Source of the DNA: an uncultured Candidatus Saccharibacteria bacterium
Lineage (GTDB): Bacteria > Patescibacteriota > Minisyncoccia > 2-02-FULL-40-12 > GWA2-44-9
Direction of reading: 5' to 3'
DNA: 36,870 bases
NCBI GenBank assembly: GCA_964479835.1
Contig: CAYZRE010000004.1
Span: 1-36,870, forward strand
Positions 4,860-31,070 of the stretch are shown one piece after another; position 1 is the stretch's first letter; each line of letters opens with the position of its first letter. A program made the translations under genes and the position numbers. A model generated the notes under the pieces. That model was not told where the DNA came from. It searched no databases and saw only the letters and a list, made by a program, of their open reading frames with translations.

Positions 4860-4930
4860 GGGCCTGTAGTAAAGTGGCATTACACGGCATTCGCATTGCT
4901 GAGGCGGGAGTTCGATTCTCCCCAGGTCCA
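4860..4930 (+). tRNA. tRNA-Ala(CGC), CCA not encoded
   Basis: Acceptor GGGCCTG/CAGGTCC with G3:U70, anticodon arm CGGCA-TTCGCAT-TGCTG, T-loop GTTCGATT. Confidence 0.93.
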
Positions 4931-5101
4931 CATGTACTCGTTGGGATGCCATTTGGCATGCCAACGAGTAACTTGTAGTCTTGGTGGAGAGAATCGAACG
5001 CCGGACGGATGCGACGCCAGCTGGCGTTGCCCGGAGGCGGTGGCTAGCCCGAGATACGCGACGGCGCGCCGAGAGGCGAAGCCGATTCTCCCCAGGTCCA
5101 C
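4913..5101 (+). repeat. 19-bp direct repeat of the tRNA-Ala 3' end bracketing a structured insert (170-bp period)
   Basis: CGATTCTCCCCAGGTCCAC at 4913-4931 and 5083-5101. Internal hairpins at 4935-4970 and 5011-5030; inverted T-arm copy at 4989-4999. Confidence 0.85.
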
Positions 5102-27420: not shown

Positions 27421-27448
27421 ATTGTAGACAGTCATTTGGCGATGTCAA
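27421..27448 (-). promoter_or_regulatory. sigma70 promoter, leaderless, for the acidic ORF
   Basis: TTGACA-16 nt-TACAAT, 6 nt before ATG 27414; the -35 overlaps the ruvC stop. Confidence 0.7.
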
Positions 27449-27918
27449 TACTTGCGTTGTGCGGTCGAGCAGCACAACGCAAGCGCGAGTGCATCAGCGG
27501 CGTCATCCGGACTTATTTTCTCTTTGATGCGCAACAGCATGCGCACCATGTCCTGCACTTGCGGTTTTTTTGCCTGGCCGTTACCACAGACGCCGCGCTT
27601 TACCTGTTGGGGCGTGAATTCGACAACAGGGACTCCGTGTTGCGCGAGCGTGAGCATAATAACGCCGCGCATCTCGGCGACCGCCATAGCTGTTTTTGCG
27701 TTGTTCATGAAGAACAGGCGCTCCACGGCGGCCGACTGCGGTTTGTAGGAGGTGATGAGCTTGGTCAGCGCCAGGGCAGTCGATTGTTTGTCCTTCATCG
27801 AATCGGTTCCCGGGTTACGGAAGACACCCCAGGTGAGCGGCTGAAGTGAGCCGGCGGCATCTTCGACGATGCCGTAGCCAATGATTGTGGTCCCCGGATC
27901 AATACCAAGATAGCGCAT
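27445..27918 (-). CDS. ruvC: Holliday junction resolvase RuvC
   Basis: LGIDPG, VERLFF, EMRGV, G.G.AKK.QV..MV, PDDAADALALA. Confidence 0.96.
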   Translation of the reverse strand: MRYLGIDPGTTIIGYGIVEDAAGSLQPLTWGVFRNPGTDSMKDKQSTALALTKLITSYKPQSAAVERLFFMNNAKTAMAVAEMRGVIMLTLAQHGVPVVEFTPQQVKRGVCGNGQAKKPQVQDMVRMLLRIKEKISPDDAADALALALCCSTAQRKY

Positions 27919-27922
27919 ATCT

Positions 27923-28153
27923 TCAGGAGAGTTCGGACCCTCGTTTGACGGCCCGTTCGATAGTATCTTTTGGCATGTTTATTTTTCGAGCACGCTCGAT
28001 TTCTCCTTTTAATCGCATATTCGTGCCGGGGTCGGGGTTACCTCGCGCGGCTGCCGCTATTGCCTGCGATAACTTTCCGAATTCGTGGCTCTTTTTGGCA
28101 TCAGCGGCTCCCTTTTTGTGTTTTATCTGACCCCATTTATTGTGTCCGGACAT
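27923..28153 (-). CDS. yebC: YebC/PmpR family protein, N-terminal domain only (76 aa)
   Basis: [31 protein letters not shown]; the stop is 4 nt before ruvC. Confidence 0.85.
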
Positions 28154-28162
28154 GGTAACAAT

Positions 28163-29185
28163 TTAGAAATCCAACTTCAGAGACGCAGGATCCGGTACGC
28201 CAACATGATCACGCCCTGCTTTTGTAATGACGCGTCCCTTGGTAGTTCGGGCAATGAAGCCCAAGCGCATGAGGTACGGTTCGTAGACATCCTCGACAGT
28301 GCTTTCTTCTTCGGATATCGAAGCCGCAATTGACTTCAGTCCGACCGGACCGCCGCTGAATGTTGTCGCAATGGCAAGTAATATCTTTCGGTCGGTTTCC
28401 TCAAGGCCCTGTGGATCGACTTCCAACATGTGCAGTGCGGCTTTTGCGGTCGACTCATCGATGTCCGCGATGTTATGCACCTGCGCATAATCGCGGACGC
28501 GCTTCAGAAGTCGGTTGGCAACACGAGGAGTGGCGCGCGCCGAGCGGGCGATAAGCGCGAGTGCAGGCTTAGTGACCGTGATGCCCAAGAGTCCGGCCGA
28601 GCGGGTGATGATGCGTTCGATCTCGTCAGGCGTGTAGTATTCAAGACGGAAGCTGGAACCGAAGCGTGAGCGAAATGGGGCCGAAAGCATCGATATTTTC
28701 GTGGTCGCGGCAACCAGTGTGAAGCGGGGAAGATCAATTTGGAGTGTCTTGGCCGCGTTGCCTTTGCCGATGACGATGTCGAGCTTGAAATTCTCCATCG
28801 CTGGGTAGATGACCTCCTCAACCATCTTGTTGAGGCGGTGGACTTCATCAATAAACAATACATCACCGTCCGACAACCCTGTCAGTATAGAGCCCACATC
28901 GCCGGCCTTCTCGAGAGCAGTTCCGGAGGTCATGCGCATATTGGCATTGAGCTCACGCGCGACCAGATAGGCCAGTGTTGTCTTGCCCAGACCCGAGGGA
29001 CCGTGCAGGAGGACATGCTCGGGAGACTCCTTGCGCTTTTTGGCGGCACCCAGTACGATGCGGAGGTTTTCCTTTGCTTTCTCCTGCCCCACATACTCCG
29101 CAAAGCTTTTTGGGCGTAGGGTCAGGTCCAGTAACTGGTCGTCGGGACCGCTCCGGGGGGTTATCTGGGGCTCCTTGACATTCAT
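28163..29185 (-). CDS. ruvB: Holliday junction branch migration ATPase RuvB
   Basis: LRPKSF.EYVGQ, GPSGLGKTTLA, FIDEVHR, EDVYEPYL. Start reset to MNVKEP (ATG 29185). Confidence 0.96.
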   Translation of the reverse strand: MNVKEPQITPRSGPDDQLLDLTLRPKSFAEYVGQEKAKENLRIVLGAAKKRKESPEHVLLHGPSGLGKTTLAYLVARELNANMRMTSGTALEKAGDVGSILTGLSDGDVLFIDEVHRLNKMVEEVIYPAMENFKLDIVIGKGNAAKTLQIDLPRFTLVAATTKISMLSAPFRSRFGSSFRLEYYTPDEIERIITRSAGLLGITVTKPALALIARSARATPRVANRLLKRVRDYAQVHNIADIDESTAKAALHMLEVDPQGLEETDRKILLAIATTFSGGPVGLKSIAASISEEESTVEDVYEPYLMRLGFIARTTKGRVITKAGRDHVGVPDPASLKLDF

Positions 29186-29203
29186 AGAAAAATGGAATAG
29201 AAT
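29175..29203 (+). promoter_or_regulatory. Near-consensus sigma70 promoter driving the intergenic RNA
   Basis: TTGACA (29175-80)-17 nt-TAGAAT (29198-203); no + strand CDS follows. Confidence 0.75.
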
Positions 29204-29209
29204 ATATGC

Positions 29210-29397
29210 TGGTACGCTGCAATAAGGACCTCTATAATCTGTAGGCAACTGAACCCAGTGCCCTAAGCATGCCGGTTCAGTCGGGATACTCTCTTAGCTC
29301 GGAAGATTTGGTTTCGACTGGATCTCTCCTCGGAATTATCCTGTCCCGTGACCCTATGGTCGTGGATATTGCCTACAGGTTATAAAGGTTCTTTTGC
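29210..29397 (+). ncRNA. Structured ncRNA, ~180-190 nt four-way junction (family unassigned; 6S-like size)
   Basis: ~28-bp closing stem 29219-29248/29369-29397 plus three internal helices, a UUCG loop, nine G-U pairs on the + strand, and an upstream promoter. Confidence 0.7.
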
Positions 29398-31070
29398 TAT
29401 CCCAAAACGCGGTGGATCTCCTCTACCGATGTGATTCCTTGTAACAGCTTAAGATAGCCATCCTGCAGCATGGTGACCATGCCCTCCTTGATGGCCAAGT
29501 CGCGGATGTCGGTAACCGAGGCCTCATCAAGAATCAATCGCTCCATCGCGCGGGTCACCTCAAACACCTCGTAGACCCCGACACGGCCCTTGTAGCCAAT
29601 ACTATTGCACTTGCCGCACCCGACCGGACCGTACACGGCGGACGATGCATCGGTGGCAGAAAGATCAAACCGCTTACTGATCGGAGCAATCTGCTCCTCT
29701 AGTTTTTGTGTATCCTTTTCCTCTAAGGGAAGTTTCTTTTTGCATGACACGCACAGTCTACGCAGAAGTCGTTGGCCCATCGCCATGGTCATCGCCGGGG
29801 CGATTGTTTCCGGCTTGGCTCCAAGGTCGATGAGGCGGGGGATGGTGCCGGCCGCATCGTTAGTGTGAATGGTGGACAGCACCATGTGGCCGGTCAGCGC
29901 AGCTTCCAACGCGATACTCGCGGTCTCAAGGTCGCGGATTTCACCGATGAGAATAATGTCGGGGTCTTGGCGTACGATAGCACGCAGTCCTCCCGCGAAT
30001 GTATAGCCCTTGGACGGTTCAACTTGCGTCTGATTGACCCCCTTGATGTGGTATTCGATAGGGTCCTCCACGGTGATTATTTTCATGTCCGGCGTGTTCA
30101 GGTGGTTCAGAAACGCGTACAGCGTTGTGGTTTTTCCGGAGCCGGTGGGCCCTGTCGTGAGCAGTGTTCCCTGGGGTCGCGCCAGTAGCTCCTTCACCTG
30201 GGTGAGCACATCGGTGCGCATGCCAAGGTCTTCTAGGTTTGCTTGGATACTGCGCGGATCCAACAAGCGCATCACAATAGATTCTCCGTATTCGCTCGGA
30301 AGAACGGAAACACGAACCTCGATGGCGACATCGCTCTGGCGGATAGTAAATCGTCCGTCCTGGGGCGCTTTGGTGATATTCAACTTCATCTTCGACAGCA
30401 CTTTGACGCGATTGAGTACGCGTTGATATCGCGCCTTGTCGATGGTGGCAACTTCGTGCAGAAGACCGTCGAGGCGATACCGCAGACGGCACACATCAGA
30501 TTCCGGTTCGAAATGGATGTCGGATGCGCTCGTTGAAAGCGCTCCGGCGATAAGAATCTCAAACAACTGTGTTACCGGAATCTGTTCCAACTGGCCTTTA
30601 AGGTCGTTGATGTTCTTAATCTTTTCCTGTGCCTGCTCCATTACCGCGTCGTCCACACTAATGGCACCCACCTCGAATGTTGCGATGGTTTTAATAGTCG
30701 CGTAGCGCGTCCAGATGACCTCCATAGTTGCGTGGGCGACCATGAGTATCTTCAGCGTTGTGTAGCGCGTGCTGAGTTCCTTTAAGAGTGTTGCGGCTTC
30801 AGGCGTGCGCGGGTCGAGGACTGCAACAACAGCTACTGCACCTTTTGTTTGCACAACAGCGAGGCCGGCTGCGCGGGACTGCACCTCGGGAACAACCTTG
30901 AGTGCCTCGGGATCAATAGGCAGACCTTTAATGTCTGCGAACGACAGGCCGAGCTCTGTGGCAAGCGTTTGCGCAGAGAGCGATTGCTCCTTTGCGCCGA
31001 TACTGGACAACTTCTTTTCCAGTTCGGCCGCGATGTCGGGCTTTGTGGGCTGTGCGGGTGAGGTCGGCAT
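29397..31070 (-). CDS. Type IV pilus assembly ATPase, PilB/GspE family
   Basis: ASDIHFEP, PQDGRF, TGPTGSGKTTTLY, TVEDPIEY, RQDPDIILIGEIRD, STIHTN, CxxC...CxxC, GYKGRVGVYE. Confidence 0.93.
   Translation of the reverse strand: MPTSPAQPTKPDIAAELEKKLSSIGAKEQSLSAQTLATELGLSFADIKGLPIDPEALKVVPEVQSRAAGLAVVQTKGAVAVVAVLDPRTPEAATLLKELSTRYTTLKILMVAHATMEVIWTRYATIKTIATFEVGAISVDDAVMEQAQEKIKNINDLKGQLEQIPVTQLFEILIAGALSTSASDIHFEPESDVCRLRYRLDGLLHEVATIDKARYQRVLNRVKVLSKMKLNITKAPQDGRFTIRQSDVAIEVRVSVLPSEYGESIVMRLLDPRSIQANLEDLGMRTDVLTQVKELLARPQGTLLTTGPTGSGKTTTLYAFLNHLNTPDMKIITVEDPIEYHIKGVNQTQVEPSKGYTFAGGLRAIVRQDPDIILIGEIRDLETASIALEAALTGHMVLSTIHTNDAAGTIPRLIDLGAKPETIAPAMTMAMGQRLLRRLCVSCKKKLPLEEKDTQKLEEQIAPISKRFDLSATDASSAVYGPVGCGKCNSIGYKGRVGVYEVFEVTRAMERLILDEASVTDIRDLAIKEGMVTMLQDGYLKLLQGITSVEEIHRVLG

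Follow-up and report, generated by a model that had tools for sequence, protein, structure and literature searches.

What stands behind a consensus promoter that points away from ruvB and is followed by no protein-coding sequence? The question arises in a contig of an uncultured Candidatus Saccharibacteria bacterium (CAYZRE010000004.1, assembly GCA_964479835.1), of which we analysed positions 1 to 36,870 of the forward (+) strand; this whole stretch of 36,870 nucleotides (nt) is called the window. A reading made earlier from the letters alone (here, the sequence-only reading) had placed an RNA gene with a four-way junction between ruvB and pilB, and had suggested either a divergent 6S RNA or a new class of non-coding RNA. 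We find that the locus almost certainly holds a real + strand RNA gene, present in neither Rfam 15 nor the literature that we searched. The gene is ~170 nt long (29220-29397, +) and represents a new RNA class, matched by no Rfam 15 family, as the second of the two suggestions had it.

The first line of evidence is the fold. The minimum free energy structure of 29205-29400 on the + strand is a four-way junction of -79.2 kcal/mol, while shuffled sequences average -51.6 kcal/mol (z = -5.9) and none of 200 shuffles folds as well; the - strand reaches -68.3 kcal/mol. Helices P1 to P4 all lie where the sequence-only reading had drawn them, and the linkers at the junction consist of 0-3 unpaired bases. 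Under the consensus structure the window copy forms 61 pairs, 52 of them Watson-Crick and 9 G-U, with no A-C opposition, so that the nine G-U pairs counted earlier on the + strand are found again. As had also been claimed, no coding sequence follows the promoter: among the listed open reading frames (ORFs), none of at least 40 amino acids (aa) lies within the element, and the element is entered only by an extended ruvB frame, by two short frames that end no later than 29225 and by pilB with its stop codon.

The second line is covariation. We built a covariance model, R1, from 28 family sequences. When 55 family sequences are aligned to R1, 95.6% of 3343 cells fall in standard pairs and 38 of the 61 pairs show compensatory changes, and not one of 500 shuffles reaches any of the five measures used. 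Across the class, 92.6% of cells are paired in 54 sequences (67.9% when shuffled) and 57 of 61 pairs are compensatory. Sliding the partners by a single column lowers pairing to ~50% in the family set and likewise in the class set. Independently of the model, MAFFT and RNAalifold predicted 53 pairs in P1, P2 and P3 from 28 sequences, and 23 of these pairs carry compensatory changes. Ranking column pairs by mutual information put predicted pairs in each of the first 36 places, and this ranking showed no convincing tertiary pair outside the helices. Covariation of this strength is comparable to that of long-established housekeeping RNAs. The alignments also fix the strand. Read on the +, they contain 385 G-U/U-G cells against 39 A-C/C-A cells, and two pairs are invariably G-U in the 55 family sequences. 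This excess, together with the two invariant pairs and the absence of A-C from the window copy, assigns the RNA to the + strand.

The promoter points the same way. The TTGACA-17-TAGAAT promoter noticed earlier is present on the + strand, and its counterpart, TTGACA-N16-18-TAnnnT on the RNA strand and no more than 140 nt upstream, occurs in 86 of 88 order-level loci, with a spacer that is nearly always 17 nt. The G-U excess and this recurrence of a consensus promoter both argue for an RNA made from the + strand. Between the -10 box and P1 lie 9-115 nt (86 loci). A small hairpin, AAUCCC..GGGAUUUU, is frequent in the longer leaders (for example in loci L014, L037, L044, L098, L109 and L123) and absent from the window copy. 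Since the strands of this hairpin resemble the base of P3 (GGGAUA / UAUCC), alternative pairing or attenuation is conceivable. The window's own leader is probably removed or unstructured. More generally, the contrast between a leader of changing length and the invariant body behind it suggests processing as the origin of the mature 5' end. At the other end, 51/88 loci have either a run of at least four T or a T-rich tail after P1, which makes intrinsic termination plausible for many loci, though perhaps not for all.

Evidence for a transcript is weak. In many metagenome runs, ~0.14 of the words sampled from a 1.2-kb query are present, roughly the share of the query that the RNA occupies, and this fits a very conserved element. 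For a check against metatranscriptomes, which the sequence-only reading had proposed in stranded form, we found in one RNA-seq metatranscriptome a contig of 178 nt whose positions 20-178 align with 29244-29402 with 3 differences, and which covers the RNA and almost nothing else; strand, ends and level are not readable from contigs, and we regard this one as a weak hint of a transcript. The RNA was uncovered in two RNA runs (X18 and X19).

How widely is the gene distributed? The window's genome (607,982 bases in 31 contigs, 93.5% complete) contains one copy. By blastn, 57 of 62 family genomes have a match (22 of 23 genera). R1 finds the RNA in 100 of 105 order genomes (48/49 genera), at one place each, the second listed match being the same place on the other strand, and in 84/151 genomes of a class sample. 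A shorter model, R2, made from P3, P4 and the 3' strand of P1 in 43 class-level sequences, brings the class figure to 107/151. This is an underestimate, because 11 of 20 stretches score E <= 0.001 when the region upstream of ruvB is scanned unfiltered in 20 of the 44 class genomes without a match. In a phylum sample, R2 matches 5 of 7 genomes of the same class and none of the 144 sampled from other classes. In the genomes searched, the RNA class is confined to Parcubacteria/Paceibacteria. A scan of a species-genome collection with a 20-base pattern returned 111 stretches, and R1 gives 64-190 bits to 76 of the 80 that were listed. The record titles among the listed matches name Candidatus Yanofskybacteria, Azambacteria, Parcubacteria and Paceibacterota, and many third-party annotation (TPA) records read 'uncultured Candidatus Saccharibacteria'. 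The four listed stretches that fail R1 include three titled Verrucomicrobiales, Enterobacteriaceae and Rhodohalobacter; the pattern is short, and in collections of such size a few matches by chance are to be expected.

These counts bear on whether the locus might be a miniature inverted-repeat transposable element (MITE), or some other palindrome that matters at the DNA level. A terminal inverted repeat of 25-29 nt is what such an element would show, but each genome has one copy, its position is fixed between the same genes across the class, and both the compensatory changes and the G-U pairs speak for selection at the RNA level. In the viral collection IMG/VR the pattern matches only twice (L333 and L334, on contigs of ~34 kb). 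Both stretches have the same 10-base inverted repeat at a similar spacing, but a different interior, which forms one long nested hairpin (z = -9.1) and scores only 27.6 bits with R1; their 300-nt flanks show no similarity to RuvB or PilB, and they may be chance matches or a distant relative. We rejected the MITE on copy number and synteny, and we give a mobile element or DNA palindrome next to no probability. The sequence-only reading had named a strong Rfam match, a lack of covariation and dispersed copies as evidence that would tell against it; we looked for all three and found none of them.

Could the RNA be a known one in disguise? At gathering thresholds, Rfam 15 recognizes 8 tRNAs and nothing else in the whole window. 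At E <= 10, the region 29100-29480 gives only four chance-level matches (three unrelated small-RNA families and one long non-coding RNA), and 20 homologues at E <= 5 give two unrelated weak matches only. Self-cleaving ribozymes (hammerhead, twister-sister, hairpin) match neither the locus (E <= 10) nor the 20 homologues. Elsewhere in the window's genome, RNase P RNA and tmRNA turn up as expected, which tells us that the search method works on this genome. Neither these two families nor the RNA of the signal recognition particle (SRP) matches the locus, in agreement with the earlier remark that it lacks their hallmarks.

The SRP RNA deserves a closer look, since the lineage has no recognizable one, and a long terminal stem is common to stable RNAs. 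SRP RNA models match nothing in the window's genome and nothing in the 62 family genomes. The protein side is equally empty: the SRP54-type GTPase domain (PF00448) is represented by no more than 3 weak partial matches among 105 order genomes, the Ffh M domain (PF02978) has no match in 151 class genomes and none in 201 phylum genomes, and a DTAGR motif is absent from every reading frame of the window's genome. In their Parcubacteria study, Nelson and Stegen (2015, PMC4508563) detected neither ffh nor ffs. As an observation in its own right, the phylum-wide sample hints that the absence of SRP may reach beyond the Parcubacteria class. Because the lineage is without Ffh or FtsY, the element is not an SRP RNA, and we rejected this identity for want of both a partner and an Rfam SRP signal. 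A Y RNA fares no better: no TROVE/Ro60 domain is found in the window's genome at its 93.5% completeness, and no Rfam Y RNA model matches, so that this candidate was also rejected. With the Ffh, FtsY and Ro60 partners missing and no SRP or Y RNA signal at the locus or in the 20 homologues, a highly divergent SRP (4.5S) RNA or Y RNA is extremely unlikely.

The 6S question was the more serious one. As a divergent 6S RNA, the element would act as an open-promoter mimic, binding the sigma-70 RNA polymerase holoenzyme and serving as the template for short product RNAs. The size of the element, its long closing helix, its long terminal arm with internal loops, its strong promoter and its single copy would all suit such an RNA, and no match to the 6S family, RF00013, was found in the window's own genome. 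The structure argues otherwise. Both strands of the would-be bubble are helices, with compensatory changes at 7/7 pairs of P2 and 8/8 pairs of P4, and hairpins joined by linkers of 0-3 nt leave no single-stranded template. No 6S-type family of Rfam matches the locus (E <= 10) or the 20 homologues (E <= 5). Parts of the helices are invariant in sequence, and strong helical sequence invariance is not typical of 6S RNA. Besides this RNA, 7 of 151 class genomes hold a separate RF00013-like locus of ~140-170 nt, away from the four-way-junction RNA; only that of genome G113 lies over the Rfam cut-off (52.1 bits). The four such loci that we compared (L337-L340; genomes G113, G156, G200 and G150) have common sequence blocks and long closing helices, and look like the lineage's true 6S RNA, poorly detected by Rfam. 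In the window's genome, a profile of the four gives one weak match (E = 0.063), by eye a small hairpin and not a 6S homologue. Taken together, these results make a divergent 6S RNA, also in the form of a second and unusual 6S, quite unlikely, and do not support this half of the sequence-only proposal.

What, then, does selection hold constant in the RNA? Three parts are nearly invariant across the class, whose proteins and remaining RNA helices have diverged far: the junction-proximal 10 base pairs (bp) of P1 (CUGYAGGCAA / UUGCCURCAG), the P3 base, which includes an invariant G-U, and the 3' strand CCUCGGAA together with the UGG/CUGG tandem wobble block. Conservation is highest in P3. In P2, P4 and the outer half of P1 the sequence changes freely while the pairs are kept. 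At its apex P3 has a plain tetraloop of dispensable sequence, with covariation at the closing pair (UA 47, CG 7); in some families the apex is longer by about 16-20 nt. A conserved P1 core and conserved P3 loops amid varying helices are the pattern expected of an RNA held at defined faces by a protein or by its own tertiary contacts.

The neighbourhood is the remaining clue. Both flanking genes lie on the - strand, so that this strand reads pilB, the antisense of the RNA gene, ruvB, the N-terminal part of yebC and ruvC. The ATG of ruvB (29185-29183, - strand) falls inside the RNA promoter, 35 nt from P1, and the -35 box is made of the first ruvB codons (ATG AAT GTC AA, - strand; 29175-29185), an overlap that recurs in many family members as CTTGACATTCAT and may contribute to freezing the gene order. 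At the order level the flanks of nearly all 88 loci fit ruvB upstream (divergent) and pilB downstream (convergent), judged by ORF geometry only. At the class level we assigned flanking ORFs by Pfam at 32 of 40 loci, leaving out eight with a similar ORF pattern: RuvB lies upstream in 26/32, and 26 of the 31 downstream ORFs tested are T2SSE. Among the loci that depart from this order, L296 has RuvX upstream, and NYN or beta-CASP genes occur downstream.

Such persistence could reflect a local element acting in cis or in antisense. Strong head-on transcription between pilB and ruvB-yebC-ruvC would then interfere, or the RNA would pair with its full complement in messenger RNA that reads through from pilB into ruvB, and would insulate or tune ruv expression. 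The geometry allows it: the RNA promoter lies over or directly beside the ruvB start, so that transcription entering ruvB from upstream has to run through the RNA gene in antisense. The position is moreover widely kept, even beside yebC where ruvB is missing. No RuvB_N match is found in 12/151 class genomes, several of them 100% complete (G106, G107, G123, G125, G132, G168, G171, G194, G196, G224, G226 and G248), and some Paceibacteria appear to have lost RuvB. The RNA is kept in 10 of these 12, eight of which we checked at the locus. In 6/8 of these it sits on the strand opposite to yebC and upstream of it, either immediately or with one gene between; ruvC follows yebC in all three whose next ORF was tested. 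Four ruvB-less loci have no pilB beside the RNA, and in the other 2/8 the RNA is near pilB without ruv genes. Against a purely local role stand the loci where the RNA persists with no adjacent ruv/yebC operon (L323, L326 and L288) or no adjacent pilB (L324, L325, L329 and L330). A conserved junction, G-U pairs specific to the + strand and invariant loops are likewise not needed for pure antisense or interference. We therefore hold this explanation to be unlikely. Kept without RuvB or an adjacent PilB, the RNA behaves as a self-contained unit with a tendency to remain beside the ruv/yebC operon. The linkage itself may come from overlapping promoters and conserved gene order, from a local antisense or interference role, or from a functional tie to junction processing.

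The last of these leads to another reading, in which the RNA four-way junction mimics a Holliday junction and acts as a decoy or regulator of RuvA, RuvC or RuvX. The near-perfect junction with its 0-3 unpaired linker bases suits this idea, as does a place beside ruvB-yebC-ruvC across the class, with RuvX as the upstream neighbour in the rearranged L296. 6S RNA mimics an open promoter, and if true, a Holliday mimic would be its counterpart in recombination, in bacteria that depend on recombination and scavenge DNA. Junction enzymes recognize DNA, however, and mimicry of the junction's shape alone leaves the P3 loops and the invariant P1 sequence unexplained. Overlapping promoters and conserved gene order can explain the linkage, pilB is an equally constant neighbour, and the RNA persists in 10/12 class genomes without a RuvB_N match. 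A search for literature on RNA mimics of Holliday junctions showed nothing relevant among the papers listed. We rate this reading very unlikely.

The reading that we prefer, to which we give an even chance, is that an independent gene of the new class encodes a structured RNA of ~170 nt that is stable, acts in trans and is probably bound by protein. It is suggested by the conservation pattern, the consensus promoter and the near-universal single copy. The RNA has a consensus sigma-70 promoter of its own, is read from it in the direction leading away from ruvB, and folds into a tight four-way junction. The analysis shows the gene and its strand, secondary structure, promoter, copy number, distribution and synteny; stability, action in trans, protein binding and processing are inferred. 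Its mature 5' end would probably arise by processing of the variable-length leader. Most likely it would be the partner of a protein, either as a subunit of a ribonucleoprotein (RNP) or as an RNA that sequesters the protein. The putative protein would recognize the invariant junction-proximal 10 bp of P1, the internal loops of P3 and the tandem G-U block, with P2, P4 and the outer half of P1 serving as structural struts.

Several points weigh against this reading. The partner protein is putative, and its binding to the RNA is a prediction. Transcript support is a single low-depth contig, without strand, ends or abundance and with DNA carry-over possible. A clear U tract after P1, which bears on 3' end formation, is present in only 51/88 loci. 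The very persistent position by ruv/yebC and pilB could mean a local, cis or antisense role. Finally, the pair counts of the family and class sets come from alignments fitted to the model and lean towards the structure.

The coordinates of the RNA gene, its parts and its neighbours are collected in the table.

Table. Parts of the RNA gene and flanking genes in the window, with strand and defining features.
Feature	Position	Strand	Details
RNA-gene promoter, sigma-70-type	29175-29203	+	TTGACA 29175-29180, 17-nt spacer, TAGAAT 29198-29203
Short leader, promoter to P1	29204-29219	+	Length differs among relatives; extra hairpin absent in this copy
P1 5' strand	29220-29248	+	Pairs with 29369-29397; inner part CUGUAGGCAA nearly invariant across the class
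P2 hairpin	29249-29280	+	Sequence variable, structure kept; 7/7 pairs compensatory
P3 long arm	29282-29343	+	Two asymmetric internal loops, both conserved; tandem G-U block (UGG/CUGG), invariant; UUCG apex
P4 hairpin	29346-29365	+	Sequence variable, structure kept; 8/8 pairs compensatory
P1 3' strand (UUGCCUACAG...), then U run	29369-29397	+	Last base overlaps the pilB stop codon (other strand)
ruvB, divergent from the RNA gene	28163-29185	-	RuvB at 28166-29185 by Pfam (RuvB_N, AAA_lid_4, RuvB_C); first gene of ruvB-yebC(N-domain)-ruvC
yebC N-domain ORF	27923-28153	-	Pfam YebC_N
ruvC	27445-27918	-	Pfam RuvC
pilB-type T2SSE ATPase, convergent with the RNA gene	29397-31070	-	T2SSE/PilB at 29400-31070 by Pfam (T2SSE, 411 bits)

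Two further features of the window were noted. The yebC gene between ruvB and ruvC encodes the 73-residue N-terminal domain only, in an ORF of 76 aa, while the YebC of relatives is full-length at ~240 aa. Elsewhere, 4898-4931 and 5068-5101 form a direct repeat of 34 nt, 79% identical, in which the 3' end of the tRNA (4860-4930) is repeated ~170 nt downstream; an integrated element may have left it as a scar.

Parcubacteria/Paceibacteria rank among the most abundant uncultured bacteria and have genomes of 0.4-1.4 Mb. These tiny genomes have shed even the signal recognition particle, yet they keep a 170-nt RNA gene in nearly every member of the class. Its retention, its invariant loops and its strong covariation point to an important, lineage-specific function based on RNA. 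In the literature on RNAs of Patescibacteria, Parcubacteria and the candidate phyla radiation we found no description of it, within a search that left subscription journals outside its scope and may miss recent work. With more than 130 sequences (88 order-level and 40 class-level loci and 8 from ruvB-less genomes), a consensus structure and two covariance models, the family is defined well enough for further use.

How does the RNA compare with known systems? It is like 6S RNA (ssrS; RF00013) in being single-copy and ~170-190 nt long, in having its own strong promoter, a closing helix formed by its ends and a long arm with internal loops. It differs in lacking covariance-model similarity, in replacing the central bubble by two covarying hairpins set in a tight four-way junction, and in its invariant helical segments. 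With the DNA Holliday junction, the substrate of RuvABC, it has in common four helices with almost no unpaired bases and a gene beside ruvB-yebC-ruvC, but it is RNA and not DNA, has conserved features outside the junction and is kept in genomes without a RuvB_N match. Bacterial Y RNA/YrlA, which partners Ro60 (Rsr), also has a long stem of the 5' and 3' ends that closes a module of several helices, and the conserved stem suggests a protein site in both; here there is no TROVE/Ro60 gene, no Rfam match and no visible tRNA-like T-arm. Unlike the stable RNAs of ribonucleoproteins (4.5S/SRP RNA, RNase P RNA and tmRNA), this RNA is limited to one class, matches none of their families and occurs where the SRP proteins are absent. 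It resembles them in being near-universal in its lineage and single-copy, in setting invariant loops and helices among covarying ones, and in a variable leader that suggests processing.

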